Positions 10,424-57,356 of a stretch of 64,000 nucleotides of DNA are shown piece after piece (the first letter of the stretch is position 1; each line of letters begins with the position of its first letter). The translations under genes and the position numbers were made by a program. Source of the DNA: a bacterium (GTDB taxonomy: Bacteria; SZUA-182; DTGQ01); assembly GCA_040752695.1 (NCBI GenBank), contig JBFMGO010000018.1:804-64803 (forward strand). The letters run 5' to 3'. Under the pieces are notes generated by a model. The model did not search any database, had not been told where the DNA came from, and was given only the letters and a program-made list of their open reading frames with translations.

Positions 10424-10500
10424 TTTTCATTTTTCCTGTTACTTTCCCATCTTCCCTGTTACTTTCCCATTTTTCCTGATACTTTTCCATCTTTCCTAAT
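10424..10500. repeat. Degenerate ~20-nt tandem repeat (cctgttactttcccatcttc) x ~4
   Basis: Visible directly in the sequence between the terminator and the fdhB 3' end. Confidence 0.6.
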
Positions 10501-14200: not shown

Positions 14201-14691
14201 TGGTCCGTCGTTTCCCAACTGTCTTGCCGGGTCGATGCAATCTTCTGGCCTATCAGAGGGAGAGCTTCTTCCCAACTCATGACTGTCCATTTATCATCGC
14301 CGGCAGCCCGGTGAAGGACTCTGGCCAGTCTTTTGTCTTCAGGCCAGGAATCGATTCGCGACCCAATGGCGTACGTGGTATTCAATTCCTCTTCGCTCAC
14401 TGTCTGGGTGGAAATCTGCCTGGTAGCAACACCCTTGCTGCAGAGCGCTCCCTCGTTTACCGGGTGAGTCGGATCTCCTTCTACATTGATTACCACATCC
14501 TGGCTCACGGTTACAATTACTCCACAGCCACATCCGCAAAAGCAGCAGATGCTGGTGGTCTCGATGCCCTCTTTCAACCCCATACCGGCCAGCGCACTAG
14601 GAATCTTCACCCAGTCAAGCAAAGAGCCTGCCAGCAGGAAAGCTGTCGCTCCACCGGAAAATTTCAAAAAACTTCTTCTCGTTACTTCCAT
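11248..14691 (-). CDS. fdhA: Formate dehydrogenase catalytic (alpha) subunit; molybdopterin, Tat-exported, selenocysteine-containing (UGA at 14062-14064 read as Sec)
   Basis: The upstream 209-aa ORF has a Tat signal (RRSFLK) and a CxxC...C [4Fe-4S] motif. It ends ...IEHQARL-TGA and continues in frame HSSTVSALGESFGRGAMTNTW. This matches the FdnG Sec region (..ARV-U-HGPTV..FGRGAMTN) and the 921-aa molybdopterin oxidoreductase body. Confidence 0.85.
14000..14061 (-). promoter_or_regulatory. Putative SECIS element directing Sec insertion at the fdhA UGA
   Basis: The region immediately 3' of the in-frame UGA in the mRNA contains a short palindrome (CUCUGGGAGAG within CGACAGUAUCGGCUCUGGGAGAGUCG). 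Bacterial SECIS hairpins lie here by rule. The structure was not computed. Confidence 0.35.
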
Positions 14692-17097: not shown

Positions 17098-17177
17098 GAT
17101 CTCCCCTCCTCTTTTTTCGGGAAAAACCTCATTGTTTGAATCCTGGTTGTTATCATAAAGCCGCCTTATCGTCATCA

Positions 17178-18746
17178 TCATAAAGCCGCCTTATCATGGT
17201 AGCGATGTCTGGCTTCTTCAGCCTGCTGCATCGTTAGTTTCATTCTTATAGCCTGTTTGACCTCATCGAGCGGTCTGACTTTACCGCCTTTTCTGTCCAT
17301 CAGTTTGATAATTCCATACCCTGCATCCGTCTTGATCACCTCGCTTATTTCCCCTTTTTCCAGAGCAAAAGCCGTTTTTTCCCATGAAGCATCCTTTTCC
17401 CCCCGGCCAAACCAGCCAATCTCTCCTCCCCGTGCAGCCGAAGGGTGTATGGATTTTTTCATGGCCAGATCACAGAAAGAAGCCCCTGCATCGAGTTCCT
17501 TCAGGAGATCTTCAGCCTCTTTGTGCGTTTTAACGATAATGGCTTCGGTCCGAACTTTAACCGGTACGGTGAATTCCTCAAGATGTGATTGGTAAAATTC
17601 CGCAATATCCTGTTCGCTGACCGTGATCTCATCCATGTTTTTCCGGAAAGCATTCGCCAGAGTCCAGGTTACCCTCCTTTTGATCTCTGCCCCTACCTCC
17701 GGATCGCTTTCGAGATTTGCCTCTCTTGCCTTCTTTGAAAAGACACTGGTTTCCACCAGATAGTGAACCCATGCACCTTTGAGTTTTTCTTTTTCCTTTT
17801 CTGAAGCATTACTCAGAAAAGGAAAAAGCATTTCCTCACTGATGACCTCCCCTCCCACTCTGGCCAAGATGTGCTCTTCAGCAGGATGGAAGGATACCTT
17901 TGCCTCTTCAAAGTACTTTTGAAGAAGTTCTCTTCTCCTTTTCTCAAAAAGCCTTGAACGTATGCCTTCTTTAGCCTCTTCAAAGGATACGAGTTGCTCG
18001 TTCTTCGTATCCAGCACTTTCATAATCTGGTAGCCGTCCTTCGTTTTTATGACATCGCTGAGCTTACCGGTTTTCAGGGCAAAGGCTGCCTTTTCCAGGT
18101 CAGGATCTATCCGGCCCTTATATAACCACCCATGTTTTCCCCCTGATTTCCAGCAGCGGCAAATGGATTTCTCTCTGGCCAGGGTTTCGAAGGAGGCACC
18201 TTCCTGCAATGCCCCAAGGAGCTCTTCAGCCCTTTTCCCGCTTTGAACCACAATATGCTGAACCGAGACACTCGCCGGCAGAGCAAAGGCGTCCCTGTTC
18301 TTTTGATAATAGTTCTCAAGATCCTCTCTTGAGATTTGCGCCTCTTTATCGAGACACTTTTTGATAAAAAACCGGGCCAACGTCTCGTCAGTAACTCTCC
18401 TTAATTCCTCCTTTACCTTCCGATCCCTGTCCAATCCGGCCTCTCTCGCTTTGCGAGCAAAAGCCTTCGTCTCTAAAAGCCTGTTCAATACCGTTTCTCT
18501 GAACTCTTCTCTCCTGTGCTCCGGCAACCTCCTGAGAGCAGCCTCCAGCTCCTCTTTGTCTACTTCCTGGTCGCTGCCGGGTTCCGGGTACCTGTTCAGG
18601 TATTTGTCCGGCTCATGATCTTCGAATCTGGCTGCCGCATCTTTTTGAGCATGACAACCATACATACACGGCAGGAGCAGCATGAGCATGCCGAGGGAAA
18701 ACAAGACCCTCCTCTCTATCCTTTTCATGCCTTTTCTCCTTTTCAT
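17178..18746 (-). CDS. Peptidyl-prolyl cis-trans isomerase, parvulin/PpiC-type with two rotamase domains (SurA/PrsA-like lipoprotein)
   Basis: Signal peptide plus Cys (LLPCMYGC). Two parvulin domains (VQHIVVQ...GG..GW, EAIIVKT...GGEIGW). Start overlaps the upstream protease stop. Confidence 0.7.
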   Translation of the reverse strand: MKRRKGMKRIERRVLFSLGMLMLLLPCMYGCHAQKDAAARFEDHEPDKYLNRYPEPGSDQEVDKEELEAALRRLPEHRREEFRETVLNRLLETKAFARKAREAGLDRDRKVKEELRRVTDETLARFFIKKCLDKEAQISREDLENYYQKNRDAFALPASVSVQHIVVQSGKRAEELLGALQEGASFETLAREKSICRCWKSGGKHGWLYKGRIDPDLEKAAFALKTGKLSDVIKTKDGYQIMKVLDTKNEQLVSFEEAKEGIRSRLFEKRRRELLQKYFEEAKVSFHPAEEHILARVGGEVISEEMLFPFLSNASEKEKEKLKGAWVHYLVETSVFSKKAREANLESDPEVGAEIKRRVTWTLANAFRKNMDEITVSEQDIAEFYQSHLEEFTVPVKVRTEAIIVKTHKEAEDLLKELDAGASFCDLAMKKSIHPSAARGGEIGWFGRGEKDASWEKTAFALEKGEISEVIKTDAGYGIIKLMDRKGGKVRPLDEVKQAIRMKLTMQQAEEARHRYHDKAAL

Positions 18747-19240
18747 GCCTCTTCTCCTCTGGTCACATCATTCAGCCCTCCATTCAACTCTTCCATTACC
18801 AGCCTGATGAGTGCAGGAATCCTGGCTTCAATTTCCGGTGAAAGTTCCATCCCCGGTGAAATGTCCTTCGGTTGGATAGCAATAACCATAACGTCTGGTT
18901 TATGGTGAATAATGTGCTCAGCCATTTGTATGACATCGAAAAAACTCGTCTGATGAAAAGAAAATTTTGTCCTGCCGGCAAATTGCGCAAACCCCTCAGG
19001 GGAAAAGCGGTAAATATCCCCCGGGTTCCCTTCCGCCTGAATCGCATCAATGAGAATAACCCTGTTTCTCCCCTCAAGGTAGGGAAGAAGACTTAAACCC
19101 AGGGTTCCGCCATCGAGAATTTCAACATCGGAAGGAAGATCCATCGTCTGAAGCTTTCTCGCTGTATGGACCCCGATTCCCTCATCTTTCAGGAGAATAT
19201 TTCCTACACCGAGTATCAGTCTTGGAAGAATTTCGCTCAT
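18743..19240 (-). CDS. Hydrogenase maturation endopeptidase (HybD/HyaD/HynC-type)
   Basis: ILGVGN..DEGIG...D(A/G) and H..D motifs of the Ni-Fe hydrogenase C-terminal protease family. About 165 aa from the ATG at 19240. Confidence 0.8.
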   Translation of the reverse strand: MSEILPRLILGVGNILLKDEGIGVHTARKLQTMDLPSDVEILDGGTLGLSLLPYLEGRNRVILIDAIQAEGNPGDIYRFSPEGFAQFAGRTKFSFHQTSFFDVIQMAEHIIHHKPDVMVIAIQPKDISPGMELSPEIEARIPALIRLVMEELNGGLNDVTRGEEA

Positions 19241-19399
19241 CTTAGCTCTCTCCCTCATACAACACCGTCATCTCTTCAACTACACCGCAATCTCTTAACC
19301 ATCCCCTCCCCCGCTCATTTTTGAGAGAGGGCAAAAGAGCGGGGAAGCATTCCGCATCTTCCCGCTCTCTTTTGTCACGATGATATATAAGATGAGATG

Positions 19400-21505
19400 T
19401 TAAAGGACCTTGATCTTCTTAACGTTACTCTTTACACCCTTTTCCACCCACATATACAGATACTGTCCAGACCACTCGGGAGGTAAATTCTCCATCTTGA
19501 TCTTGACCATGGTACTGCTCCAGCCCCGGATATTCTCCAGCAATATACCCATGCCGAGGGAGGGGCTCTGTGCATCTTCCAGCGAGCCGATGCGTACTTC
19601 GCCACTTTCCTGAGTAGGACCAAAATTGAGGCCGTAGATCCTCACTACGTTATCGTTGAGGATTCTAAAAGGTGTAAGACGGTATATGACGGGAGTCTTC
19701 GTAAGCTCAAAATACAAAGGATCGCTGGTCATCACCTGGAAAATGGTATCGCCTTCGCTGAGAACTCCATCTGCATCCTCATCACCAAAGAAGATGTACT
19801 TCACATAGACAGCCCACTTGCCAAGAGCCATATCGCTGCACTTGAGATTGACAGGCTCATCCAGATCCTGGACATAATTCCGCCCGCCGGTCTCATCATC
19901 CGCACGATCCTTGTAGAAATCATAGACTCTCACCTCAAAGCTCTCATTGCTCCAGTTCCGGTAATCAAGTGCCGTATACATGCCCTGTGAAGAGGAAAAG
20001 TCCACCAGGCGGCATACTCCGTGGTAGTTATCATCGAACATCTCTGTACGGGTATCGCCAAAACTACCGATACCGTAATCTTCGAATGAAACCGTAATCC
20101 ATGTGCCGCAGGTCCCTGCCTCAGGGGCCGAGGTCAAAATCGGAGGAGCGCAATTCTCCAGGGTAAATACTCTGTGGTTACTTTCGCCAGTCGGAGTCAC
20201 TACCTGTACGTCGAAGTTACCGGCGACCAGCGGCGACCAGCAGGGAACCTCGAACTCGATCAGGTTATCGGTCCAGGCATGGACAGGCATATCGGTCCAT
20301 TCACCATCGACATCCAACTGTACAGCGTAGCCTTCTCCCCTTTGTTCACCGAAGTTCGCTCCCCTTAAAGTAACCACCGTACCGCAGCAGCCGTGGCTTG
20401 GCTGAATGCCGATCGCTTCTTCGTCAAGAGCGGGAGGTGCAGCCGGCGGTGTGGGCGGCTCCGGAAGAGCTACGCCAAAAAGATCCGCATGACATCCCAT
20501 ACACTGCTGATCAGCCGTAAACTGGCCATATTCGGTCGGATCGACATCGAAGTAATCGTCGGGATCGTCAGAGCTGCTGACATGGAACCCTTTGGCTCTC
20601 CATCCGTTGGTGTTCTGGACGTGAGGACCGATTCTGTGAAGAGTGCTGATGCTGTGGCAGATTTCGCAGTAGCGGATAAGATGGGGATCAAAAGGATCCC
20701 AGTTCGGGTTGTTGGGATTCTGTGAGTGACATCGATAGCAATTATACGCCATGTTTCCCTGGAAATTCATATGGTGGGTATCGTAGTTGGCACAAACAGG
20801 CTTTCCATATTCGTAGAAGCCTATATACTCGCCGTGCTCGTTAAAATGCTCCTGAGTCGAAGGATGTCCGGGGCTTTGAGGATCTTTAGTCACTGAGGCA
20901 GTCTGTTCCCAATGACAGTTTTCACAGGAAAATGGAGTGGGAGTTACGACCGATGGAGGATACATCGACATATCGCGAACCGGAGTAATCTCGGCGATCA
21001 GATCGGGACTGTGGCAGGCAACGCAGTTTGAAGAGCCTGACATGTCGGTATTGTGGTGCCAGCCATTGGTATCAAGATCCTGGCTGCTGTGACAGCCACT
21101 GGTTGTGCAGTCCCTTATCACGGATACGCCACTGGGAGCGCCCGGGCTCACCTCGTGGCAGACAATACACCGCTGCTCCTGCACCGCCAAAGGCGTAGCG
21201 TGGTGCCGCTCGGCCAGGCTGTTGCCGTGGCAGCTCCGGCAGTCGGTTTCGGTCAGATTTTCATACCTTGTATCATAGATACCGAGTTCCTGAGGAGCGT
21301 AATCCATGAGAGGATGAGGACGATTGTAATTCGAATTTATAGCCCCGGCGATTCTCGCCAGGCTGAAAACAAGAAATATACCTGTCCCTGCACTCAAAAG
21401 CCACTTTTTCAGGATAGCGCTTTTTGCAGACCTCCCTTTTAACCACCTGAGGGAGAATTTACATGATGTACACATAATCTTCCGCCTTTCTTCCTTGACG
21501 TTCAT
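19400..21505 (-). CDS. Multiheme cytochrome c (at least 7 CxxCH plus one CX4CH) with C-terminal beta-rich (IPT/Ig-like) region; embedded in the hydrogenase operon
   Basis: CxxCH motifs: CRSCH, CIVCH, CVACH, CENCH, CYRCH, CEICH, CMGCH. N-terminal hydrophobic signal/anchor. An alternative start at 21475 is possible. Confidence 0.75.
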   Translation of the reverse strand: MNVKEERRKIMCTSCKFSLRWLKGRSAKSAILKKWLLSAGTGIFLVFSLARIAGAINSNYNRPHPLMDYAPQELGIYDTRYENLTETDCRSCHGNSLAERHHATPLAVQEQRCIVCHEVSPGAPSGVSVIRDCTTSGCHSSQDLDTNGWHHNTDMSGSSNCVACHSPDLIAEITPVRDMSMYPPSVVTPTPFSCENCHWEQTASVTKDPQSPGHPSTQEHFNEHGEYIGFYEYGKPVCANYDTHHMNFQGNMAYNCYRCHSQNPNNPNWDPFDPHLIRYCEICHSISTLHRIGPHVQNTNGWRAKGFHVSSSDDPDDYFDVDPTEYGQFTADQQCMGCHADLFGVALPEPPTPPAAPPALDEEAIGIQPSHGCCGTVVTLRGANFGEQRGEGYAVQLDVDGEWTDMPVHAWTDNLIEFEVPCWSPLVAGNFDVQVVTPTGESNHRVFTLENCAPPILTSAPEAGTCGTWITVSFEDYGIGSFGDTRTEMFDDNYHGVCRLVDFSSSQGMYTALDYRNWSNESFEVRVYDFYKDRADDETGGRNYVQDLDEPVNLKCSDMALGKWAVYVKYIFFGDEDADGVLSEGDTIFQVMTSDPLYFELTKTPVIYRLTPFRILNDNVVRIYGLNFGPTQESGEVRIGSLEDAQSPSLGMGILLENIRGWSSTMVKIKMENLPPEWSGQYLYMWVEKGVKSNVKKIKVL

Positions 21506-21626
21506 AAACCTTTCCTTCCCGTTCAGTTCGTTTTAAAAGTCAGTTCCTTTCAAAGGTCAATTCTTCCCTGGCCTATGTGTTCCCAGGTCAGGACGATTAA
21601 ACATCTTCAAATCTCCGCTGGCAAAA

Positions 21627-23261
21627 TCAAATCTCCACCTGGAATTTCTTTACCTTGCCGGATGGTGTAATCACGTGAACCGCACATGCTATACATGGAT
21701 CGAATGACCGTATGATCCGGCCAATATTGATGGGATTCTCCGGGTCAGGAATCGGGCAGCCTATCAGTGCCTGCTCATAGGGACCCTTGCGGCCATTTCT
21801 ATCCGTGGGCGAGGCATTCCAGGTTCCAGGCACCACACAGGCATACTGGCTGGTCTTATATTTGGAGATCTTGATCCAGTGGCCCAGTGCTCCCCGTGGA
21901 GCTTCAGACATGCCATAGCCCTGGCCTGAATAGGGCGGGTCCCAGTGGGCAGTATCGTGAATTTTGGGAGGAGTGGGGTTTATTCCCTGCTCGTAGGGAG
22001 CAAAAAGAGCATCCAGTTCATCGAGCCACACCACCATGGCATCACAGAGCATAAGGGTTTCGAGGGCGCGGGCTGCATGCCTGGCCACTGCTCCAGGCTG
22101 AACGCCTGCATTGACTAAAGATACGAAGGTCTGAACCGCTGCATGATTATAGGCTGGATGTTCCGGCCTGTTCAGGATCACCATCATTCTGGCTAAGGGG
22201 CCGACCTCCATCGGGTAGCCATTATAGCGTGGTGCTTTGATGAAAGAATATGCACCTGACTTATTCAGATCGAAAGACTGGACGGTCTGGGAGGGACGGC
22301 CGTCGGTGCCTGCCACATACCAGCCTTTGGTCACGTCTTCTGTCAGGAGCGGTTCAATAGCGGCGCGTGAAGTGCTGTTCGGCACCAGAACCCCGTTGAG
22401 TATCACGCCTTCGGGGTAGAGGTAACCTCCATCGGCCATGGGAAACCCGCCGTACGAGAGATAATTCTGATGGCCCACTCCTACGCTCGAGGTGGCCAGT
22501 CCGAGTAAAGGTCCGGTGCCAAGGGTATACACATCGTTTACATACGTATTGGTAATAAAGGCGGTCTGCTCGGCAAGCATGGTCCGGAATGTGTTCCTGG
22601 TGGCCTGATCGGGTGCCTGGGTTACTCCTCCTGCCACAATGCCTGACTGATGGGGCTGCTTGCCAGCCAGCATGGCTGACATTTTCTTGGCCTTTACCTG
22701 CATGAGCAGTGCCTCGAGGTAGTGCCCGACCGCCATCACTACCGTATCGAGATCGCTGATGCAGTACGCATCCGCCTGATACGCCGGAAGGAGAGGGCCT
22801 GCGTATTCACCCTCCACCGGTTGATGACTGACTTCAGCGATTACTTTATCCCGGATCTTCTGGATGTAAGTATCACTGCCGGTATAGCCGGCAAGAACAC
22901 TGAGGTCGAGATAGTCCAGGGCGGAAAGGTGATAGAAGTGCAGCGGATGATCGTGAAGCCAGGCTGCACCGGCAATGAGATTGCGAATGATCCTTGCCGC
23001 TTCCGGCAGGGTGCGGGTGCCCTGGGCCGTCTCTACGGCCATGCAGGAGGTCCATCCGTGAGCTGCAAAACAGACACCGCAGATGCGCTCGGTCACATAT
23101 GTGGCATCTCGCGGGTCCTTGCCAACCAGCAGCTTTTCAAGACCGCGCGCCATGGTGCCGCCCACCCGGGCATCCGTCACAACACCCCCATCTACTGTCA
23201 CTTCTACCTTCAGATGACCTTCTATTCTGGTAAGGGGATCAACAATAATAGTCTGAGACAT
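21627..23261 (-). CDS. [NiFe] hydrogenase large subunit
   Basis: N-terminal RICGVC..H and C-terminal DPCIACAVH Ni-binding motifs. 544 aa. The C-terminal motif is Cys, not Sec. Confidence 0.9.
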   Translation of the reverse strand: MSQTIIVDPLTRIEGHLKVEVTVDGGVVTDARVGGTMARGLEKLLVGKDPRDATYVTERICGVCFAAHGWTSCMAVETAQGTRTLPEAARIIRNLIAGAAWLHDHPLHFYHLSALDYLDLSVLAGYTGSDTYIQKIRDKVIAEVSHQPVEGEYAGPLLPAYQADAYCISDLDTVVMAVGHYLEALLMQVKAKKMSAMLAGKQPHQSGIVAGGVTQAPDQATRNTFRTMLAEQTAFITNTYVNDVYTLGTGPLLGLATSSVGVGHQNYLSYGGFPMADGGYLYPEGVILNGVLVPNSTSRAAIEPLLTEDVTKGWYVAGTDGRPSQTVQSFDLNKSGAYSFIKAPRYNGYPMEVGPLARMMVILNRPEHPAYNHAAVQTFVSLVNAGVQPGAVARHAARALETLMLCDAMVVWLDELDALFAPYEQGINPTPPKIHDTAHWDPPYSGQGYGMSEAPRGALGHWIKISKYKTSQYACVVPGTWNASPTDRNGRKGPYEQALIGCPIPDPENPINIGRIIRSFDPCIACAVHVITPSGKVKKFQVEI

Positions 23262-23473
23262 ATGATTTCCTTCCTTGCAATCCCCCTGGCGGATTTATCG
23301 GGCCGCATGAGACCTTGAGCAGGCCATGAGCACAATGGCTGCTCGACATCTGCACCCTGCGGCTTTGTCCATACCACCGTCGAGGATTGGATTATCACCA
23401 TTCAACAAGCGGCTCGCCAGGCTGCCAACCAGGCGGCTTACCGGCTGGCTTGCCAGGTGGTTCGCCAATTGGC

Positions 23474-24415
23474 TTACCGCGGTAATATTATTGGACCGAA
23501 GGGGCCGAAAACTACGCCGGTTGCTATATACAGCGGACTGAACTTATCGTAAAATTTGGGTTCGGTGCATCCTGCACAGGGAGAACCGCAGCCAATGCAC
23601 CAGTTGACTCCGTCGTTCCACTTGAGAGAGGGGCAGTCAGAATTGGTCTGGATCCCCTTGCATCCTTTCAGAAACAAACACCAGTCCTTCGTGGATGGAT
23701 TATTCCAATCGCTCAAAAACTCTCCCCTTTCAAAGTGAGGACGGCGGGGGCAATTGTCGTGAATGTTCTGTCCAAAATGAGCCACTGGACGAAGGTTCGC
23801 ATCGAGAGGGGGAACTTCACCACCCAGATACGTAAGAACCGTATCGTAGAACCATGTGGGATGAATGGGGCAGCCTGGCAGGTTGATAAACGGCTTGGAT
23901 ATGGCATACTTGTTTAAGAAATACTCCACACCCTGCCCTTTGCTCACCGTGCCCCTTGGTATGCCTCCATAACAGGCACAGGCCCCAACGGCAATAATTG
24001 CGGCAGCATTACTGGCCGCAGCGATAAAGGTTGCCTCGAAGGCACTGTCAGCGACCATGAGGTATCTTGAATCTGCGGAAGGAATAGAACCCTCTACCAC
24101 AAGAACATATCCGCCTTCCTCAATGGCTTTCACCAGGGCATATTCGGTTACTTCACCGGTTCCGGCCATAATAGTCTCGTGATACCGAATAGTGACGACA
24201 TCAAGGATAACATCCCGCAGATCCGGCGTCAGGCAAGAGAGGACGGACTCTGTACATCCGGTACAGTCTTGACCTTCGAGCCAGACCACCGCAGGCTTCT
24301 TCGACACATCGGCCATAAGTAACTTTGGCCAACCCAACTGGCTTATGCCCAGGGCTGCTGTCGCACCCATGGTCATCTTCATGAATTGGCGCCGAGTAAA
24401 AACGAAAGACTTCAT
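23474..24415 (-). CDS. [NiFe] hydrogenase small subunit, Tat-exported, short periplasmic type
   Basis: Twin-arginine signal (TRRQFMKMTMGATAALG). CxGC...GxCxxxG FeS cluster motifs. 313 aa with no C-terminal membrane anchor. Confidence 0.9.
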   Translation of the reverse strand: MKSFVFTRRQFMKMTMGATAALGISQLGWPKLLMADVSKKPAVVWLEGQDCTGCTESVLSCLTPDLRDVILDVVTIRYHETIMAGTGEVTEYALVKAIEEGGYVLVVEGSIPSADSRYLMVADSAFEATFIAAASNAAAIIAVGACACYGGIPRGTVSKGQGVEYFLNKYAISKPFINLPGCPIHPTWFYDTVLTYLGGEVPPLDANLRPVAHFGQNIHDNCPRRPHFERGEFLSDWNNPSTKDWCLFLKGCKGIQTNSDCPSLKWNDGVNWCIGCGSPCAGCTEPKFYDKFSPLYIATGVVFGPFGPIILPR

Positions 24416-25433
24416 ACACTCACCTCATCTTGGTTTGATTTTTTGATCATCACACTGGGATAGATACCCATGCTTTCTTTGCAATTCCCTTCTTCTGGTC
24501 CGGTTTCACCTCCTTTAACCAGAGTCCGAAAGCTTGATGAGTTATCCGGTAGTTCTCGCTGGTGCTGGCATAGGGAAAAACACAGCGTGGTCACAGGGGA
24601 GCCATATGCTTGAATTTCAAAAAATCATCATCTGTAAATATCCTGAAGAAACGTATGTTTACCGGAGATCTAAAAAATAATTTTCCAGATGCTTTTTACA
24701 CTTTAATTGAATGAGCTTCACTTTTTCGTATAGGCATAAGCCGTGCCTTGTATTCCGGGGAGGAAAACGGAAAGAAGTAACGTTAAGTTATAATTCATGT
24801 TTTTTACTCCTGGTTAAAATATATATCATATATTTAATGTAAAGAATTATTCTCAATTGTTTATATATTGTAAGTTTTTCTGTACATATTAAAACCTCCA
24901 GTCATGTCTTAAGAATGATCCTATGGTAACCTTATAGGATCTGAATGGTAAATGGACTCCCCCCGGCCCAGAGGCGAGGATTCATGTTTCACTAAAGAAA
25001 CATGAACCAGTAAAAAAAGAGATGCTGAAAAGGGGGAAGCAGGAAAGAAAAACCACAGGCAGGCCAGGTATCTGCCTTTGACAACTGGCCTGCCAATAAC
25101 ATGACACAACCAGCATTAGGCAATAAATCAACCTGTTACACAATTCCAAAGATACCGATATCTGAATACCGTTCGATTCTTAAAAATTCTCTGCGCGAAC
25201 GAGCCAGTCATGAGACAACTATATGGCTGCCTTTTCTTGCTGTAAGGAAATATGCCCAGTTGTTAAAAATGTGTAAAGTATTCTATACATCTAAAAATTA
25301 GAATTATACTTCAAATAATTTTGGATATTTTTAATCATTATATCAATGGATTGCACGGATTATTCAGGCAGGTGCGTTAGTTACTATTTCACCGATGAAA
25401 CATCTTCAAGGGATAAGAGAACAATAGGAATGG

Positions 25434-25512
25434 GAAGAAAAGGAACCAGGAACAGGAAGAAAGGAACCAGGACCGGGAAGAACAGGAACCAGGACCGGGA
25501 AGAAAGGAACCT
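25434..25512. repeat. ~21-nt tandem repeat (gaagaaaggaaccaggaccgg) x ~3.5
   Basis: Direct reading of the sequence. Confidence 0.7.
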
Positions 25513-25564
25513 TAATGCAGGAAGGGGCAAAAGAGCAGGTGTTATATCGAGAAAGGAGAGTACT

Positions 25565-25614
<50 letters not shown>

Positions 25615-25683
25615 CCCTTACAGGGGAGAGGGATAACATGCATCCCAATCCCCTGCAAGGGGAGAAAGACAGATCAGGCCAGG

Positions 25684-25707
25684 TCTGATCTGATCTGATC
25701 TGATCTG
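25684..25707. repeat. (TCTGA)n pentanucleotide repeat, ~5 copies
   Basis: Direct reading (gatctgatctgatctgatctg). Confidence 0.85.
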
Positions 25708-25720
25708 GGCGGGGCGGGCC

Positions 25721-28700
25721 TTACTGGACTACCTCAAAAGAACCCACTGTCTGATCCAGCCTGCCCGTGGCATCCTGGGCTGTCAACTGGAGGTTATATA
25801 TTCCATACCCTGTCGATGGCGGGACAACCACCGTCACACTGTAGGTATGATCATGAGCGGTTGAATCTCCATGAGTGCCATCGTCGTACATTACCTGGGA
25901 TGAGCTTCCGGCCAGAGGACTCAAGTCAACGGTAACCGTGGTCAGATCGTTATCCGTATCAAAGGCATAGACCGTGATCAAGACAGTCTGACCCGCCGGA
26001 ATGGTTTGAGGCTCTACCCTGGCTGCTGAGATGGCCGGAGAGGATGCGGCCTTCGGCACGATGCTTGGGTGAGTGTAAAAGAGATTGTCGTGGCAGCCGA
26101 CACAGCTATGGTTGTAGATGATGTTATTCGGCTTGACCATATTTCCCCCAATGCTCTCACTGTAGGAAGCGGTATCATTCCGTTTCGACTTCCTGTAATA
26201 GCGGAAATTAGCGCCGTAATGAGTTGAAATAGTGCCTTTTGTCCATGTCCCTTGAAATTCGGCATTGGGATTATCGACAATGATAACCGATCCGTCGGCT
26301 ACTGACTTAAATCGAACGGCATCGGCAATAACATAACTGAGTGCGTCTCGCCGTGGAGTAGCGCTGCTGCTTACCGTGTCTTCAATATCTTCGGAAGTAA
26401 GCTGGACATAGCCGGAAGTTCCCTGATTGAAGGAAAAGGTTCCCAGAAGGTTCCATACGATCGGGCTTTGTCCTGCGTTTTCCCGCTGATCTTCATAGAT
26501 GATGTCTTCTCCGTTAGCGTGGCTGACCTTATACTTGGCGTGGGATGAATTCAAGCTGGGATCGATTGAGCTGATATCGGACCAGGTTGCGAATACCTTA
26601 TACTGCCCGGCTGCCGGGATATCAGGCCTATAGATGGCAGAGCCGCCTTCGTCTTTGACCAACCAGCCAAAATCGAAGGCAGGTACATAGCTCTGTGTTC
26701 CAGGCGGGCTGATCAATTCACCGTGCCTGATCATGGCAGGAGAAGGCGATCCATGGACATTATGGCAGGTCGTGCAGGTCGAGGCAGCATCACCCTGGCC
26801 ATCAAAATCGGAATCACAGTAATTTCTGACATTCAGTGCAAGGTGCCAGTGATGCTCGTTCCTGTGGGTCCCGAAATTCGTGCCGTAGGGCGGATCTTTG
26901 TGCCATAGGCCCGTTCCCTCGCTGTGGCCCAAAAGCTCATATTTATTATGGCAGCTCAGGCAGAGGGCAAAATCGTCCCACGACTGGGTCGGATCCAAGA
27001 TCATCGGCGGAGTGTTTCTTATAGTCAGGGCCTGATTACCATCGACCATCCGCAGCCTGTATCCTGCCTGATAGTTACCTGACGCATAGCTGTAGGTCCT
27101 GTGCTGATGATCAACGTGCAAAAGGGAAGGATCGTGGCAGTCCGTGCAGCCTACAAGGTCCCTTTTTCCATGCCCTGTTTTATAATATCCGTAAGGATTG
27201 GGGGCGCTTTCATTGCCGATCACGGCCGGGGCAGCTACTCCTGAGCCGTCGGCCCTGCTCATGGCTGGAATCTCGTCATGGCAGCCTGCACACCATTTTT
27301 CCTTGCCTGCCTTGAGCCTGCTGCCCTGATAGACGCTGCCGTTCCAGTTGTTCTTGGCACCGATGACCGGATCGCTTACCCCGTCGTAGCTTCCTTCAGT
27401 GCTGTGGCAGGGATCGCAAACATGGGTTTCGGTCAGGGGTTTATTATCTTTGAAAAGAAAGGTATGAGGGCTGTCTTCATTGCCGGGAGCGTGGCAATCC
27501 CAGCATCCGATGGAAGGGCCTTTGGCCGCGCTCAGGTGGGTGTGGTGGCTTGTTTGAGTCTGCACCATGCTTTCATGGCAATTCTGGCAGGTGGCGACAG
27601 GAGTGCGCTGGTAGGCAACCTGATCGTTATGGCACATGTTGCACATGGCATTCTTTGCGATTGAGCCGGGGCCAGGGCCATAGAATTGAGTCTGGCCGCC
27701 GGTGCTTTCCATGACATCCATAAGATCGGGGTTCGCCTTTTCATCAGCGTCCAGGTACTGAAAGTTGAACAGGGGGGATTTGTCTGCCGGTGTACTGGCC
27801 AATTCGCCATGTCTGGTCATGGCGGGATTGGGAGAGCCGTGAACATTGTGACAGGTAGGGCAGCTCTGCGGTGAGTCCGCGGTTGCATCCCAGTCCGAAT
27901 CCCAGTCCTTGGTGTTTCCGCAATACCCGCGCCCTCTAAGATGGCGAAGATGTTCATTGCTCACCTTTCCGTTCTCATCCGTATGACTGTCGTTGCGGAA
28001 ATTGGTCGCTGGAGGATCTTGCAGGAAACCGTCCGTACCATAGGCATCGCCCAGCAGTTTGTATTTATCGTGGCAGGCAAAGCACAGGGCAAAGTCGTTG
28101 CCGGTCCTGGGATTTTCGCCACTGTTGCAGCCGATCCGGGGAATTTCCAGAGGCGGGTAAGATATCCCATCCACCTGCACACTATTCAGCCGGTACCCAC
28201 TCTGATAGTTGTTCAGGCTGGCCCGGTAGGTTCCGGCCACACCATCGATATGCGCACTGGCCGTATCATGACAGTGCTCACACCCGAACCTATGGCCATT
28301 GACATAGTAGCCGTATCGCAGGTCTTCCTTTACTTCGAATTCACGAAGATGACCTATGCTCAAAGGCCATGGGCTGACCTTAAGCAGTTTGAGATAGCGG
28401 GCCGGAATGAATCTATCCAGCCTGATCTCGTTCCATCCTCCCTCGGTCCCTGTCTGCCAGGTGGGAGAGGCAAAAAGGGTGGATCGGCCCAATAAGACCT
28501 TCACAGCACAGCCGGGATCATCGCCGCCGTAGACATTCCAGTTGAACCCGGAGCCAGGGGCGGTATACAGCCTGATATGCGTAACGTCGTCAGAATCTGC
28601 AAGGTCAAAGGTAATGTATCCTCCACCCGTACCGGTACTTCCCGTGTTATTGTCCCGGTCCAGCAGGTTTTCCGCACCCTGGATATCCGAAGCCTCTATG

Positions 28701-29149
28701 CTGTCAGGACTCTGCCAGTCTCCGCTCAGGGATTTTCCTGCAATGTTCGGCGCGGATACACCCTGAATTTGGCATGATCCATCATCATGACAACCGACAC
28801 ACCATTTCTCCTTGCCCGGCTTCAACGAACCGCCCTCATACACACCGCCTGTCAGCCAATTGGCCTTGGCCCCTGTAACCTCATCCCCTACTCCGTCAAA
28901 CTGTCCGGCTGGGCTATGACAATGACCGCAGATACTGGTGGTGGCCAGACCTAAACCATCCTTCAGATAGCCTGGATAAGGGTCATCATGGCAATAGGCG
29001 CAGTCAAGCTGCGGCCCGTTGAGGCTGCTCTGATGCACGGCGCAGAGTTGACCTGCCAGCCCCCTTTCAGGATTTCCCCACATACCAAGCAGGCAAAAAA
29101 TGAGAATAAAAACCGCTTCCAGTCCTCTGCAATTCTCTCTCTTACACAT
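25721..29149 (-). CDS. Very large multiheme cytochrome c (15 CxxCH), secreted, with internally duplicated ~500-aa halves
   Basis: CxxCH motifs counted: CAYCH, CGHCH, CVGCH, CEHCH, CFACH, CPTCH, CNMCH, CQNCH, CWDCH, CDPCH, CAGCH, CTDCH, CLSCH, CTTCH, CVGCH. The two halves repeat blocks such as ...CxxCHD...KWCxGCHD... and ...CxTCHNVHGSP.PAM.RHGEL.... Signal peptide from the ATG at 29149 with an AAGGAGA RBS. Confidence 0.8.
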   Translation of the reverse strand: MCKRENCRGLEAVFILIFCLLGMWGNPERGLAGQLCAVHQSSLNGPQLDCAYCHDDPYPGYLKDGLGLATTSICGHCHSPAGQFDGVGDEVTGAKANWLTGGVYEGGSLKPGKEKWCVGCHDDGSCQIQGVSAPNIAGKSLSGDWQSPDSIEASDIQGAENLLDRDNNTGSTGTGGGYITFDLADSDDVTHIRLYTAPGSGFNWNVYGGDDPGCAVKVLLGRSTLFASPTWQTGTEGGWNEIRLDRFIPARYLKLLKVSPWPLSIGHLREFEVKEDLRYGYYVNGHRFGCEHCHDTASAHIDGVAGTYRASLNNYQSGYRLNSVQVDGISYPPLEIPRIGCNSGENPRTGNDFALCFACHDKYKLLGDAYGTDGFLQDPPATNFRNDSHTDENGKVSNEHLRHLRGRGYCGNTKDWDSDWDATADSPQSCPTCHNVHGSPNPAMTRHGELASTPADKSPLFNFQYLDADEKANPDLMDVMESTGGQTQFYGPGPGSIAKNAMCNMCHNDQVAYQRTPVATCQNCHESMVQTQTSHHTHLSAAKGPSIGCWDCHAPGNEDSPHTFLFKDNKPLTETHVCDPCHSTEGSYDGVSDPVIGAKNNWNGSVYQGSRLKAGKEKWCAGCHDEIPAMSRADGSGVAAPAVIGNESAPNPYGYYKTGHGKRDLVGCTDCHDPSLLHVDHQHRTYSYASGNYQAGYRLRMVDGNQALTIRNTPPMILDPTQSWDDFALCLSCHNKYELLGHSEGTGLWHKDPPYGTNFGTHRNEHHWHLALNVRNYCDSDFDGQGDAASTCTTCHNVHGSPSPAMIRHGELISPPGTQSYVPAFDFGWLVKDEGGSAIYRPDIPAAGQYKVFATWSDISSIDPSLNSSHAKYKVSHANGEDIIYEDQRENAGQSPIVWNLLGTFSFNQGTSGYVQLTSEDIEDTVSSSATPRRDALSYVIADAVRFKSVADGSVIIVDNPNAEFQGTWTKGTISTHYGANFRYYRKSKRNDTASYSESIGGNMVKPNNIIYNHSCVGCHDNLFYTHPSIVPKAASSPAISAARVEPQTIPAGQTVLITVYAFDTDNDLTTVTVDLSPLAGSSSQVMYDDGTHGDSTAHDHTYSVTVVVPPSTGYGIYNLQLTAQDATGRLDQTVGSFEVVQ

Positions 29150-29269
29150 AGACAGATCTCCTTGACTATTCGTTTTGAGGGAAAATTGTGCCAGGCCATG
29201 GCCACGTCTTTGCCAGACCATTTTTGTTTTCCCTCAAGATCCTTTTCTCTCCTCGTGTATATCTCACCT

Positions 29270-30154
29270 TCAATCAATTGACTCGCTATTAGTTTCATCA
29301 TGGACTTCTGCACTGCTGGCAGGCAGGTAGTTGACTCCTGTCTGATGAAAATTTCCGGCAGCATTTTGGCTGGATACATTTTTGATGGCATAGCTATAGT
29401 CATGATCAAGATATATTCCATATCCGCCATTCTCCAGTATGATATTTCCTTCAAGAAGGCATTTATCGACAGCATAGAGACCATGGGAACCATTGGAATG
29501 AGCCGTGCAGTCGATTACCGTGGAAGATTCGACGTGCAGGCCACAGGAACCGTTGAAATCGGCCGTACAGTTGATTATGGTGGATGAATCGGCTCTGATG
29601 CCATCAGAACCGTTGTAATTGGCCCGGCAATTGTCTATGAGAGAGGATTCTGCATCGATGCCGCAGGAACGGTTATACAAGGTACTGATACCTTTCACCT
29701 GATGATCCTTTCCAGAAAGGCTGATACCGCAGGAGAACCCCTGCACCGTTCCATTTACGATCTCGATATTCTTCCTCCCAAAGGCGCATATGCCTATGCC
29801 TGTTGAGGCATCGTTTGAGATTCCATCGCTTCCTGGCCCCGTAATGATATTGCCCTGTAAGTCAAGGGTCACATCGTCAGCCTTGATCTCAATGCAGCAG
29901 GTGCCGGTAGTGAATACGGTCAAATTTTTGGCCAGGGTATAGTTTCCCGGCTGGTCAATGACAATGGGGAAAGGAGCGGCCAGTTGCAGCCTGCTCTCGA
30001 TGGGCCTCATATCGGCCAGCCTGGTATCAACCCGTCCGATACCAACCTGCCCTTCTGTCTTGCCGGAACCGGGAGACATACAGAAAATGACATGGATAAG
30101 TACTGTGAATAATAAAGCCCCTAAGGTTAAACGAAGATTTTTTCTCATTTTCAT
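29270..30154 (-). CDS. Secreted right-handed parallel beta-helix repeat protein (NosD/pectate-lyase-like fold)
   Basis: Signal peptide. ~22-aa PbH1-like repeats (IDNCRANYNGSDGIRADSSTIINCTADFNGSCGLHVESSTVIDCTAHSNGSHGLY). Directly upstream of, and co-directional with, the large cytochrome. Confidence 0.5.
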   Translation of the reverse strand: MKMRKNLRLTLGALLFTVLIHVIFCMSPGSGKTEGQVGIGRVDTRLADMRPIESRLQLAAPFPIVIDQPGNYTLAKNLTVFTTGTCCIEIKADDVTLDLQGNIITGPGSDGISNDASTGIGICAFGRKNIEIVNGTVQGFSCGISLSGKDHQVKGISTLYNRSCGIDAESSLIDNCRANYNGSDGIRADSSTIINCTADFNGSCGLHVESSTVIDCTAHSNGSHGLYAVDKCLLEGNIILENGGYGIYLDHDYSYAIKNVSSQNAAGNFHQTGVNYLPASSAEVHDETNSESID

Positions 30155-30540
30155 CAATTTATTCTCCCTGAACAGAAAACTCTGTCCATAGACAAACAAA
30201 TTCGTATCCATAGGCAGGGTAATGTCCATGGTAATTGCTGGTCCAACGGTTGAGTTTTTATCAATGTGGTGCTGTTATACAGTGATGATGTCACCTCCTT
30301 TGATTATCCATGACAAGATATATCCATAGACTTTGTTTAATAAGGTATATTAGACTTCCCAATGTCTTCTTCAGACCAGGTCAAGAGAATGATCAAAATG
30401 AGGAATACACTTCATTAATTAAGCATAAGCAGTGCCAATTCAGGGTAAAAGTTCAGCCATTGAATGCACTGCTGTCAGGGCAACAGGATCACCCTGCCGA
30501 TAAGATGAGGCAACCAAATTTCCTGTCAGGAGAAAAGGAG

Positions 30541-57340: not shown

Positions 57341-57356
57341 GCTTTTCAAGATACCT

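Follow-up and report, generated by a model that had tools for sequence, protein, structure and literature searches.

A distant OmcZ-family octahaem cytochrome encoded within a soluble [NiFe] hydrogenase and formate dehydrogenase gene cluster

The 701-aa multihaem cytochrome whose gene lies inside the [NiFe] hydrogenase operon described here is, on the evidence of sequence profiles and a predicted structure, a distant relative within the OmcZ family, and we lean towards the reading that it serves the soluble enzymes HynAB and FdhAB of the same cluster as their dedicated c-type electron acceptor, a role to which conserved gene linkage points. In many uncultured sediment bacteria its relatives are encoded next to genes for hydrogenase or formate dehydrogenase, and this suggests that electrons go straight from these enzymes to an OmcZ-type haem chain; we found no published description of a linkage between an OmcZ-type cytochrome and Hyn or Fdh genes. 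All coordinates refer to the 64-kb stretch of DNA that was analysed (the window), in which the genes of the cluster all lie on the minus strand:

23474..24415, minus strand: hynB, [NiFe] hydrogenase small subunit, 313 aa (PF01058, PF14720, TAT_signal; TIGR00391 above cutoff)
21627..23261, minus strand: hynA, [NiFe] hydrogenase large subunit, 544 aa (PF00374, E 2.5e-132; NF033181 645.6 against a cutoff of 600)
19400..21505, minus strand: OmcZ-family octahaem cytochrome, 701 aa (Sec signal peptide, haem domain, Pro-rich linker, beta-sandwich tail)
18743..19258, minus strand: HyaD/HybD-type (HycI) hydrogenase maturation endopeptidase (PF01750, E 5.5e-28; TIGR00072 above cutoff)
17178..18746, minus strand: double-parvulin peptidyl-prolyl isomerase (PPIase), 522 aa (two Rotamase domains)
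15790..17181, minus strand: beta-propeller lipoprotein with delta-60/DUF5122 repeats (PF17164 and TIGR02608 matches; LSGC lipobox)
14778..15698, minus strand: FdhE-like accessory protein (PF24859, PF24860; TIGR01562 below cutoff)
11248..14691, minus strand: FdhA, Tat-exported Sec formate dehydrogenase catalytic subunit (TIGR01553, E 5e-206, C-terminal part)
10496..11233, minus strand: FdhB, iron-sulfur subunit (PF13247; FDH-beta and HybA-like matches)

The order hynB, hynA, cytochrome, maturation protease, proposed in an earlier note made from the letters alone, was recovered in full, as were the overlap of the protease stop with the PPIase start, which measures 4 nt, and the FdhE, FdhA and FdhB genes further downstream; between the PPIase stop and the start of the beta-propeller gene there is likewise a 4-nt overlap. 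HynB carries the Tat motif RRQFMK, no hydrophobic segment or membrane anchor was found at its C-terminus, and its closest solved relatives are periplasmic enzymes of A. vinosum and Desulfovibrio. HynA, which among solved structures comes nearest to the Desulfovibrio [NiFeSe] and [NiFe] enzymes, ends in DPCIACAVH (the CxxCxxH Ni-site motif) followed by a 15-aa extension, the substrate of the maturation protease; because of this motif its active site is read as Cys rather than Sec. FdhA has the Tat motif TRRSFLK and a single in-frame TGA at 14062-14064 (context HQARL-U-HSSTV) within one reading frame, and no transmembrane helix or hydrophobic segment was found in FdhB. The cluster indeed lacks a typical HupC/HyaC cytochrome b, as had been claimed, and equally a HybA-type gene, with no b-type cytochrome or HybAB gene at 10-30 kb of the window. 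These observations support the assignment of the hydrogenase as a soluble periplasmic Desulfovibrio-type enzyme (Group 1) without a membrane subunit. A c-type partner would be needed, as HynB and FdhB are anchor-less and neither a cytochrome b nor a HybA gene accompanies them, and the only open reading frames of the 64-kb window with at least two CxxCH motifs encode the 701-aa cytochrome and a neighbouring 15-haem cytochrome.

The 701-aa protein divides into two parts, each with its counterpart in OmcZ:

20471..21340, minus strand: haem domain, aa 56-345 (8 haem sites, 8 conserved distal His)
19403..20407, minus strand: beta-sandwich tail, aa 367-701 (three predicted IPT/Ig-like domains; AF2, Foldseek, hhalign)

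A direct phmmer comparison with OmcZ (8D9M; PMC9473688) gave E 1.1e-7, which a profile of the cytochrome family improved to E 4.3e-21 with coverage of OmcZ residues 31-454, and hhalign aligned the two over 408 columns with a probability of 100% (E 1.5e-48). The haem motifs had been put at no fewer than seven CxxCH plus a CX4CH; we count seven CxxCH and one Cx4CH (CTTSGCH), and since all eight are invariant across 146 homologues from both subfamilies, they are not chance occurrences. Each of the distal histidines H101, H102, H150, H151, H244, H245, H290 and H308 is either invariant or conserved to 90% or more in the joint alignment, so that every haem is likely to be bis-His ligated. OmcZ of G. 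sulfurreducens (GSU2076; PDB 8D9M, 7LQ5) has its eight haem sites in one-to-one order with these and the same eight distal His, the proportion of proline in the haem domain is similar (~8% against 7% in OmcZ), and the AF2 model of the domain (mean pLDDT 84.7) adopts the OmcZ fold. Both proteins run from a signal peptide through the haem domain into tandem Ig/IPT domains; the Ig/IPT-like C-terminus previously noticed is confirmed by an IPT/TIG domain match, is modelled with pLDDT ~90 (aa 350-701), and returns plexin IPT and FN3 tandems in Foldseek, its first two domains aligning with the pair of Ig domains in the OmcZ precursor (hhalign reach: aa 533).

The relationship is nonetheless distant. 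Pairwise identity is just 24%, and the window protein is longer (701 against 473 aa); its tail has an additional beta-sandwich domain and another that is enlarged. At haem II it has CxxCH (CIVCH) where OmcZ has Cx14CH, and at haem III Cx4CH where OmcZ has CxxCH; a canonical haem II motif is already known in a subset of accepted OmcZ homologues (PMC11208441). We rejected an assignment as class III tetrahaem cytochrome c3 (a ~110-aa fold), as c3 chains match over one local stretch at E 0.045-0.8 only; the Pfam Cytochrome_C7 match also falls below cutoff.

The resemblance extends to the genes alongside. In omcZ loci of Geobacter and Desulfobacteraceae the order is omcZ, S8 protease, parvulin PPIase, and in the window, too, a parvulin PPIase gene lies downstream of the cytochrome, its product 31-33% identical to PPIases of Geobacter omcZ operons although built of two parvulin domains and longer (522 aa against ~330 aa). 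Transposon insertions in the omcZ-operon PPIase gene GSU2074 impair electrode growth (PMC5585712), and expression of OmcZ requires its operon's prolyl isomerase (bioRxiv 10.64898/2026.07.18.739370). Neither the OmcZ homology of the cytochrome nor the omcZ-operon type of the PPIase had been picked up in the earlier note.

These likenesses bear on a second reading, in which the window protein would itself be an extracellular cytochrome of the true OmcZ type, forming nanowires or part of the matrix: a 70-kDa precursor would be cut in the Pro-rich linker by a protease encoded elsewhere, the freed haem domain would polymerise outside, and the gene would sit in hyn and fdh operons for co-regulation, H2 and formate being the donors of extracellular respiration, with no contact between the proteins implied. 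The OmcZ fold and the conservation of every haem ligand agree with this, OmcZ itself is extracellular, which also weighs against a periplasmic acceptor, and a PPIase with a repeat-rich beta-propeller gene beside the cytochrome recalls cytochrome-nanowire operons (bioRxiv 10.64898/2026.07.18.739370). Extra beta domains in the OmcZ precursor and the canonical haem II subset are moreover known among presumed Borg nanowire formers (PMC11208441), and the neighbouring 15-haem cytochrome bears matrix-binding-like modules. The window does encode an S8 protease, a subtilase at 35106-36863, 13.6 kb from the cytochrome, and together with a cuttable Pro-rich linker this makes processing and secretion possible; the subtilase, however, shares just 29-32% identity with OzpA homologues, and among NCBIfam models it comes closest to a mycosin-type one, below cutoff. 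There is no adjacent OzpA gene, unlike at omcZ, and an S8 gene lies directly downstream at none of 54 positions in the cytochrome family against 4 of 5 OmcZ-proper loci, the sole S8 gene beside a family locus (L010) being upstream and on the opposite strand. The FGNSS cleavage context of OmcZ is not conserved either, the window protein reading LFGVALPEPP there, and the window holds no outer-membrane conduit. We regard this reading as rather unlikely. The earlier argument that a low haem density marks an extracellular cytochrome is weak for the 701-aa protein, whose 8 haems lie within ~290 residues, the remainder being beta-sandwich tail.

Environmental relatives of OmcZ are known from ANME archaea and from Methanoperedens and its Borgs, and the window family resembles them in this respect: the Black Borg OmcZ precursor has two additional beta-rich domains (PMC11208441), and ANME-2a/2b homologues adjoin very large multihaem cytochromes (PMC9012536). 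The window family differs in that several of those homologues retain the protease-isomerase cluster and have been discussed solely as nanowires; in that literature we found no reported link to a hydrogenase or formate dehydrogenase.

In the present family such a link recurs. We identified 73 distinct family genes, 64 with usable flanks, and scored neighbours within 9 kb. Hyn and/or FdhAB lies within this distance at 25 of the 64 loci, whereas Hyn or Fdh is nearby at 0 of the 5 OmcZ-proper loci checked. The adjoining gene encodes HynB in 14 of 54 cases, and a PPIase, which also ends several Hyn clusters, adjoins the cytochrome at 10 of 54 downstream positions. One contig (L035) is collinear with the window except that the beta-propeller gene, kept after the PPIase in L001, L004, L005, L008 and L030, is missing; in L001, L004, L008, L030 and L033 an orthologue (55-65% identity) begins ~20-55 bp after FdhB; and in distant relatives the cytochrome gene is placed before a two-subunit Tat hydrogenase. 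Family-linked hydrogenases at other loci are likewise two-subunit enzymes with a Tat signal, and they belong to two lineages only ~30% identical to each other, with cytochrome identities from 65% down to 30%. The conservation of this linkage gives a functional coupling of the embedded cytochrome with hydrogenase and formate dehydrogenase good support at the level of gene order. Roughly half of the members lack Hyn, Fdh and PPIase genes in their surroundings; the family thus extends beyond such a role, and this counts against the acceptor reading. Its members come from sediment MAGs assigned to Desulfobacterales or to unclassified bacteria.

Under the acceptor reading, which also draws support from the position of the cytochrome gene between hynA and the gene for the protease on which HynA depends, the 701-aa protein would be exported by Sec and loaded with haem in the periplasm, its folding aided by the co-encoded double-parvulin prolyl isomerase as for OmcZ. 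Its ~290-residue N-terminal domain of OmcZ fold would hold eight bis-His c-type haems in a chain, and with no cognate OzpA gene it would probably keep its beta-sandwich tail and stay a periplasmic monomer. HynAB, from its own operon, and the selenocysteine-containing FdhAB encoded 3 kb downstream would be the donors; the octahaem chain may pass electrons on to other carriers, among which the neighbouring 15-haem cytochrome is one speculative candidate, and flow through the chain could also run in reverse. No downstream acceptor of the Qrc, Tmc or porin-cytochrome conduit type is encoded in the window, a point against this reading.

The conserved gene linkage suggests for the cytochrome the role that tetrahaem cytochrome c3 has in Desulfovibrio. 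The periplasmic HynAB and FdhAB of that genus are, like the window enzymes, soluble, Tat-exported and two-subunit, with no membrane subunit, and a c-type cytochrome gene shares the operon there as it does here, c3 genes being encoded in Desulfovibrio fdh or hyn operons (FdhC3-type). The acceptor in Desulfovibrio is TpIc3 (PMC5539420). In contrast to c3, the window protein is an unrelated octahaem fold, ~70 kDa and acidic, and our proposal is that it works like c3 without being one. The mature cytochrome has a pI of 4.7 and mature HynB one of 5.25; with both acidic, the classic docking of basic c3 to acidic hydrogenase is not obviously applicable, a further point against the acceptor reading.

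Gene linkage says nothing of direction, and the cytochromes might instead be wired the other way, the OmcZ-like and 15-haem proteins importing electrons from a mineral, a cathode or a syntrophic partner while HynAB and FdhAB make H2 or formate, or reduce CO2. Both kinds of enzyme, periplasmic [NiFe] hydrogenases and Sec/Mo-W formate dehydrogenases, can work in either direction, and the sediment MAGs in which the family occurs would suit such a life. We consider this very unlikely: the closest solved relatives of the hydrogenase are the Desulfovibrio- and Allochromatium-type periplasmic enzymes, which serve mainly in H2 uptake, and the window shows no sign of an electron-uptake lifestyle.

The genes could also be neighbours with no redox meaning, either through a shared envelope-biogenesis module (PPIase, propeller lipoprotein) or as a redox-gene island that shuffles as a unit, with small c3-type cytochromes encoded elsewhere serving both enzymes. 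Gene order is fluid, the cytochrome following hynA here, following FdhB in close relatives and preceding hynB in others; together with the family members that have none of these neighbours and the acidity of both proposed partners, this fits such an account. We nevertheless give it little credence, as the cytochrome is found again and again with two enzymes that are not homologous, and with both of the divergent hydrogenase lineages, over that whole range of cytochrome identities; spacing to the enzyme genes is short (tens of bp after FdhB), and in the window hynA and the gene of its protease are parted by the cytochrome gene.

Signals for transcription complicate the operon:

25670..25692, minus strand: hairpin resembling a terminator, immediately past the stop of the 15-haem gene (z -2.0; supported at consensus level only)
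24816..25346, minus strand: AT-rich intergenic region upstream of hynB (five sigma-70-like matches)
19333..19371, minus strand: stable hairpin followed by UUUU, 30 nt past the cytochrome stop (-28.3 kcal/mol, z -2.97)

The sigma-70-like matches upstream of hynB are weak, as their overall count is not above shuffled expectation, and the AT-rich region is not conserved in the collinear contig. The cytochrome gene has a good ribosome-binding site, and between it and hynA there is no structure comparable to the hairpin that follows it (z +0.41). That hairpin, which the earlier note did not mention, is a possible partial terminator or mRNA stabiliser; with its U-tract it means that the protease, PPIase and beta-propeller genes may be partly separate transcripts and that operon structure is not simple, which counts against the acceptor reading.

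Upstream of hynB lie the second cytochrome and its partner:

25721..29221, minus strand: 15-haem cytochrome, 1166 aa (carbohydrate-binding-like and Ig-like domains alongside a 6-haem module present twice)
27737..29038, minus strand: its repeat 1, aa 62-495 (self-BLASTP; CBM32/discoidin-like insert at ~aa 165-300)
26648..27541, minus strand: its repeat 2, aa 561-858 (45% and 43% identical to repeat 1 by self-BLASTP)
29270..30229, minus strand: secreted right-handed beta-helix protein, 319 aa (PF13229, E 1.9e-14; one N-terminal hydrophobic segment)

The cytochrome has exactly 15 CxxCH motifs, the number first reported, in a protein of 1166 aa from the first ATG or 1142 aa in the NCBI annotation, and the predicted separation from the hydrogenase of ~1.3 kb is a gap of 1305 bp to hynB. 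An internal duplication had been proposed as two homologous ~500-aa halves; the duplication is real, though not in clean halves. Self-alignment pairs residues 62-162 with 561-670 (45% identity) and 303-495 with 677-858 (43%, E 2e-37), and because the self-match covers only those segments the conserved repeat is ~300 aa in two blocks. Similarly, the partner described as NosD-like is a beta-helix protein, whereas the NosD model itself falls below cutoff.

Pfam identifies Cytochrome_C7, Paired_CXXCH_1 and Golvesin_C in the cytochrome, and its family profile matches the xanthan lyase C-terminal domain 6f2p (E 2e-29), CBM32 4a42 (profile positions 152-218) and a Bap Ig domain; over its whole length the protein matched no family that is solved or named. 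It resembles large surface multihaem cytochromes in having c7-like triplets and paired-CXXCH blocks interleaved with non-haem modules, and the carbohydrate-binding-like modules fit a location at the surface or in the matrix, which is likely on this evidence. Homologues include a Methanoperedenaceae protein (P0129). Loci L001, L004, L008, L030, L033 and L035 keep the cytochrome gene upstream of their Fdh or Hyn cluster, and its pairing with the beta-helix gene beside this cluster is conserved as well; the pair occurs as two tandem copies in GCA_040755755.1 (L115), and fusions of beta-helix and multihaem domains exist (P0168, P0173). The six-haem module, duplicated in the window protein, is present in single copy in 618-aa relatives, which adjoin OmcZ-like genes at three loci (L048, L028, L107).

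Gene calls, Pfam and NCBIfam matches and motif counts confirmed the earlier note's account of a periplasmic [NiFe] hydrogenase operon with an embedded multihaem cytochrome and of the genes flanking it. Each gene assignment is backed by Pfam and NCBIfam, and all genes of interest lie on the minus strand.

Genes of the hydrogenase, cytochrome and formate dehydrogenase region (window positions)
29270-30229, minus strand: beta-helix protein (PF13229)
25721-29221, minus strand: 15-haem cytochrome (15 CxxCH)
24416-25720, minus strand: AT-rich gap of 1305 bp
23474-24415, minus strand: hynB, hydrogenase small subunit
21627-23261, minus strand: hynA, hydrogenase large subunit
19400-21505, minus strand: 701-aa cytochrome (7 CxxCH plus CTTSGCH)
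18743-19258, minus strand: maturation protease, HyaD/HybD type (hycI)
17178-18746, minus strand: double-parvulin prolyl isomerase (PPIase), 4-nt overlap with the protease stop
15790-17181, minus strand: beta-propeller lipoprotein, 4-nt overlap with the PPIase stop
14778-15698, minus strand: FdhE, formate dehydrogenase accessory protein
11248-14691, minus strand: FdhA, with an in-frame TGA
10496-11233, minus strand: FdhB, iron-sulfur subunit

Motif counting returned exactly the haem numbers previously ascribed to the two cytochromes (15 CxxCH; 7 CxxCH plus CTTSGCH), which are the only multihaem open reading frames in the 64-kb window. The description of an anchor-less, Tat-exported hydrogenase was borne out, as HynB carries a Tat motif and no C-terminal anchor, and the cluster contains no cytochrome b, as claimed, nor any HybA/HybB gene. 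No transmembrane segment was found in FdhB, and the absence of membrane subunits is established. The hydrogenase is nearest to the periplasmic [NiFe] and [NiFeSe] enzymes of Desulfovibrio and to the Allochromatium enzyme; because HynA passes NF033181 and its C-terminus reads DPCIACAVH followed by a 15-residue extension, it is a Cys-type enzyme. FdhA (11248-14691, minus strand) is one frame with a single TGA at codon 210 (14062-14064) in the canonical context HQARL-U-HSSTV, making it a selenocysteine formate dehydrogenase; ORF callers break it into pieces of 209 and 921 aa. Within one cluster, the hydrogenase thus uses Cys whereas FdhA uses selenocysteine.

The 701-aa cytochrome is an OmcZ-family octahaem cytochrome, as profile matches, profile-profile matches and the conservation of haem motifs and His residues demonstrate. 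Homologues numbered 195 in a search of 5.8 billion proteins. The best 120 of these are mostly 630-780 aa long and originate from metagenomes and from MAGs bearing the labels bacterium, Deltaproteobacteria or Desulfobacterales; where named, they are nearly all "hypothetical protein" (the NCBI MAG contig matching the window carries locus tag AB1847_06080). The family shows no variation at its eight haem sites or at a set of His residues. In the PDB, its profile matched 7lq5_A and residues 31-454 of 8d9m_A (E = 4.3e-21), which is the Geobacter sulfurreducens OmcZ nanowire (PMC9473688); the single sequence already matches 8d9m_A (E = 1.1e-7). We rebuilt OmcZ residues 31-454 from the printed alignment and used this fragment to gather an OmcZ-family alignment. 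The rebuilt fragment is 24% identical to the window protein (BLASTP, E = 3e-18), and profile-profile comparison of the two families gave a probability of 100% (E = 1.5e-48, 408 aligned columns), the match spanning the signal peptide to both Ig domains of the OmcZ precursor. Across a joint alignment of 146 sequences all eight haem motifs are invariant and eight further His residues are invariant or at least 90% conserved (H101, H102, H150, H151, H244, H245, H290 and H308), in agreement with the eight bis-His haems of OmcZ. Homology to OmcZ and its fold, together with conserved haem sites and ligands, are established. AF2 run with a 30-sequence alignment left the haem domain at pLDDT <50 and the tail alone usable, a problem fixed by the 146-sequence alignment. 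By homology to OmcZ, a continuous haem chain should run through the protein, which answers, as far as prediction allows, the question raised in the earlier note of whether its haems form a wire.

Membership of the cytochrome c3 or c7 families, raised by the Cx4CH motif, was ruled out, with marginal local matches only, and NCBIfam holds no model for the 701-aa protein. Searching 1.84 billion representatives with the profile gave 327 proteins at E ≤1e-30. Among the matches listed, the full-length ones reduce to a few dozen 50%-identity clusters, drawn from sediment Desulfobacterales, Thermodesulfobacteriota and unclassified bacteria; many of the other matches are giant Ig-repeat proteins, matched in the tail only.

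Compared with OmcZ, the window protein is ~230 residues longer and has three predicted tail beta-sandwich domains (aa ~367-450, 455-603 and 604-701) against two in the OmcZ precursor. Haem II has a canonical CxxCH where OmcZ has Cx14CH, haem III has Cx4CH where OmcZ has CxxCH, and the haem domain contains 8% proline against 7% in OmcZ; in place of the FGNSS cleavage context of OmcZ stands LFGVALPEPPTPPAAPP. Among Borg homologues, a canonical motif at haem II is already on record, as is an OmcZ precursor carrying additional beta domains (PMC11208441). We examined five loci of OmcZ proper (G. pickeringii, a Geobacter MAG, a Desulfobacteraceae MAG, a Thermodesulfobacteriota MAG and one other): four have the order omcZ, S8 protease, single-parvulin PPIase, one is without the protease, and none of the five has hydrogenase or formate dehydrogenase genes nearby. 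In the family of the window protein, an S8 gene never lies directly downstream, and the lack of an adjacent gene for OzpA, the S8 protease of the omcZ operon, is established. The PPIase is kept, here with two parvulin domains and 31-33% identity to Geobacter PPIases. It is important for OmcZ, since Tn-seq insertions in GSU2074 of the omcZ operon impair electrode growth (PMC5585712) and deletion of the isomerase lowers OmcZ expression in Shewanella (bioRxiv 10.64898/2026.07.18.739370); 20% of prolines are cis in the OmcZ structure solved in that Shewanella work (bioRxiv 10.64898/2026.07.18.739370).

We scanned 109 loci with family members (24 from GTDB representative genomes, 79 from JGI metagenomes and 6 from exact-protein look-ups) by tblastn, with the window proteins and a divergent hydrogenase from one of these loci, L015, as queries. 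Locus L035 is collinear with the window at 72-82% nucleotide identity (15-haem, HynB, HynA, OmcZ-like, HycI, PPIase, FdhE, FdhA, FdhB), and its hynA-cytochrome spacer falls within one alignment block; the sole gene missing is that for the beta-propeller lipoprotein (window 15790-17181 against L035 10656-10714), FdhE following directly after the PPIase. The closest relatives, at 55-65% identity (L001/L002, L004, L008, L030 and L033), have the gene order 15-haem, FdhE, FdhA(Sec), FdhB, OmcZ-like, PPIase; in these Fdh-linked loci the cytochrome gene starts ~20-55 bp past FdhB, and the beta-propeller gene follows the PPIase where the contig reaches. Members at 30-48% identity, mostly from Desulfobacterales/Desulfobacteria MAGs, show the order OmcZ-like, HynB', HynA', sometimes followed by HycI and PPIase, where HynB'A' is a Tat-exported, two-subunit hydrogenase with no membrane subunit and ~30% identity to that of the window. 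Two combined clusters, L048 and L107, hold FdhAB, FdhE, a single-module 15-haem relative, OmcZ-like, HynB'A' and HycI; a PPIase ends the L048 cluster, and L107 has just a weak PPIase-like match upstream of the cytochrome. In Desulfobacterales MAGs the divergent hydrogenase lies directly downstream of the OmcZ-like gene, as in L013 (12355-16037), L015 (3437-6673) and L048 (10557-13954), and likewise in L019, L022, L052, L062, L068 and others; its small subunit is unusually long (456-459 aa), with a large subunit of 576-640 aa.

Removal of duplicates left 73 genes, 64 with usable flanks. Hydrogenase and/or formate dehydrogenase genes lie within 9 kb in 25/64, rising to 31/64 when the PPIase is counted as well, and the next gene downstream is HynB in 14 of 54 cases, PPIase in 10/54 and HycI in 4/54. 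Conserved linkage to a soluble periplasmic hydrogenase, formate dehydrogenase and parvulin PPIase is thus established. Because the association recurs with two non-homologous enzymes and with two hydrogenase lineages, gene neighbourhood provides strong evidence that the OmcZ-like cytochrome is functionally coupled to hydrogenase and formate dehydrogenase. The other half of the family is located elsewhere, often as additional paralogues within the same genome. In the closest relative, a 391-aa OmcZ-like paralogue lies between the 15-haem gene and FdhE (L001 2920-4095; = L115 18096-19271); aa 19-143 at the N-terminus and aa 457-700, the last beta-sandwich region, are retained, and the central haem core is lost.

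The 15-haem cytochrome had been described as two homologous halves. Its duplication is real, but it extends over two blocks (62-162 against 561-670 and 303-495 against 677-858, 43-45% identity), repeat 1 being broken up by an inserted domain. The family is large, with many paralogues (at least two further copies in the source MAG), and includes a homologue in a Methanoperedenaceae genome. Single-sequence PDB searches with this cytochrome and with the beta-helix protein gave no match; the 15-haem family profile matched c7-like haem domains, an Ig domain of a biofilm-associated protein, a CBM32 module (located within repeat 1) and, over the stretch that Pfam assigns to Golvesin_C, the C-terminal domain of a Paenibacillus xanthan lyase (6f2p, E = 2e-29). 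These carbohydrate-binding-like modules suggest that the protein may be fixed to a polysaccharide matrix or to the cell surface. The beta-helix/15-haem pair is conserved and cluster-linked, since GCA_040755755.1 carries two tandem copies of it a short distance upstream of its cluster of Fdh and OmcZ-like genes, and the beta-helix is fused to this type of cytochrome in two homologues (P0168 and P0173). In more distant lineages, OmcZ-like genes have single-module relatives of the 15-haem cytochrome, of ~618 aa, immediately upstream (L048 5907-7763, L028, L107, L046 and L043). Their placement suggests that the two cytochrome types may work together.

Within the window, the 121-bp hynA-cytochrome spacer is no more stably folded than shuffled sequence (z = +0.41), and the ribosome-binding site GGAAGGAAAGG stands at its end. 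Thirty nucleotides past the cytochrome stop, a hairpin followed by UUUU (19333-19371, minus strand; -28.3 kcal/mol, z = -2.97) could attenuate transcription into the maturation genes, and 4-nt overlaps join hycI, the PPIase and the propeller gene. Past the 15-haem gene lies a terminator-like hairpin, and the gap ahead of hynB contains five promoter-like matches. Because totals in the promoter and terminator scan are not above shuffled expectation, we infer the operon boundaries: hynB, hynA and the cytochrome would share a core transcript with attenuated read-through into the maturation genes, and the 15-haem gene appears to be a separate transcription unit. The 1.3-kb gap between the 15-haem gene and hynB gave no Rfam match and no protein remnant, and its nucleotide sequence is not conserved in the collinear L035. 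A (CAGAT)x4 pentanucleotide run (25665-25700, minus strand) forms part of the hairpin right after the 15-haem stop.

High conductivity of Geobacter biofilms is due to OmcZ, and in anaerobes the two classic enzymes of periplasmic electron input are hydrogenase and formate dehydrogenase. We propose that the 701-aa cytochrome would fold with the help of the PPIase, remain full-length in the periplasm, and take electrons from the distal clusters of HynB and FdhB, much as cytochrome c3 serves as acceptor in Desulfovibrio (PMC5539420); onward transfer to the 15-haem protein, and then to outside acceptors, might follow, more speculatively. Both proposed partners have an acidic pI (4.7 for the mature cytochrome, 5.25 for mature HynB), which counts against direct docking of the classic type. 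The main rival explanation is that a protease encoded elsewhere cuts the 701-aa protein, which then assembles into OmcZ-like filaments; a subtilase is indeed encoded in the window (35106-36863), but one just 29-32% identical to OzpA homologues and 13.6 kb off. A further reading, which strikes us as rather improbable, connects the two soluble enzymes of the periplasm, hydrogenase and formate dehydrogenase, directly to an OmcZ-type haem wire: the octahaem protein, as a monomer or processed polymer, would move electrons from H2 or formate towards the surface and the carbohydrate-binding 15-haem cytochrome, bypassing the quinone pool, and in reverse would let extracellular electrons feed H2 or formate production. 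If true, this reading would name an enzyme that naturally donates electrons to an OmcZ-family cytochrome, and would suggest that the Geobacter nanowire may derive from a periplasmic hydrogenase/formate dehydrogenase partner by gaining OzpA cleavage.

Homologues of OmcZ accompanied by genes for a protease and an isomerase have a wide distribution across bacteria and archaea (PMC9473688, PMC9012536, PMC11208441). In the literature searched, whose incomplete coverage leaves room for an earlier description, we found no OmcZ subfamily reported in hydrogenase or formate dehydrogenase operons, or without OzpA in such a manner. All components belong to known families; their pairing and implied role are, as far as checked, new. 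The window reveals a distinct OmcZ subfamily whose genes are repeatedly tied to periplasmic hydrogenase and formate dehydrogenase. It offers a concrete candidate donor-acceptor pair (HynAB or FdhAB with the octahaem protein), indicates an alternative to cytochrome c3 for H2 and formate metabolism in uncultured sulfate-reducer-like lineages, and supplies a natural OzpA-free comparison for what makes OmcZ polymerise.

Several other genes in the window deserve mention. The S8 subtilase (35106-36863, plus strand) has a fervidolysin-like prodomain and is the sole candidate in the window for processing the OmcZ-like protein, nothing connecting the two. Its assignment as an OzpA orthologue is unsupported: it shares 29-32% identity with Geobacter OzpA homologues, its best NCBIfam match is a mycosin-type model, below cutoff, and it lies 13.6 kb away on the opposite strand. 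Of two radical SAM/SPASM proteins (30797-33079 and 33030-34166, plus strand), the former carries a fused SPFH/Band-7 domain. Both were ruled out as AhbC/AhbD of haem synthesis, scoring far below the cutoffs; peptide-maturase models outscore AhbC/AhbD, likewise below cutoffs, and with the subtilase the pair may form a peptide-modification cluster. A fused AhbA-AhbB siroheme decarboxylase of the alternative haem biosynthesis pathway (6707-7774, minus strand; both NCBIfam cutoffs passed) lies 2.7 kb from the Fdh genes, beside a cytochrome set that needs 23 haems. At the window edge, a lower-GC region (53-1078, plus strand) has a weak DDE transposase match, below the Pfam cutoff. Finally, 55361-62260 (plus strand) encodes a TolC-like outer-membrane protein, a 1074-aa ABC exporter that combines two cyclic-nucleotide-binding domains with a C39 peptidase domain, and then a 546-aa ORF, and resembles a system for type I secretion or bacteriocin export with an unusual cNMP-sensing N-terminus.
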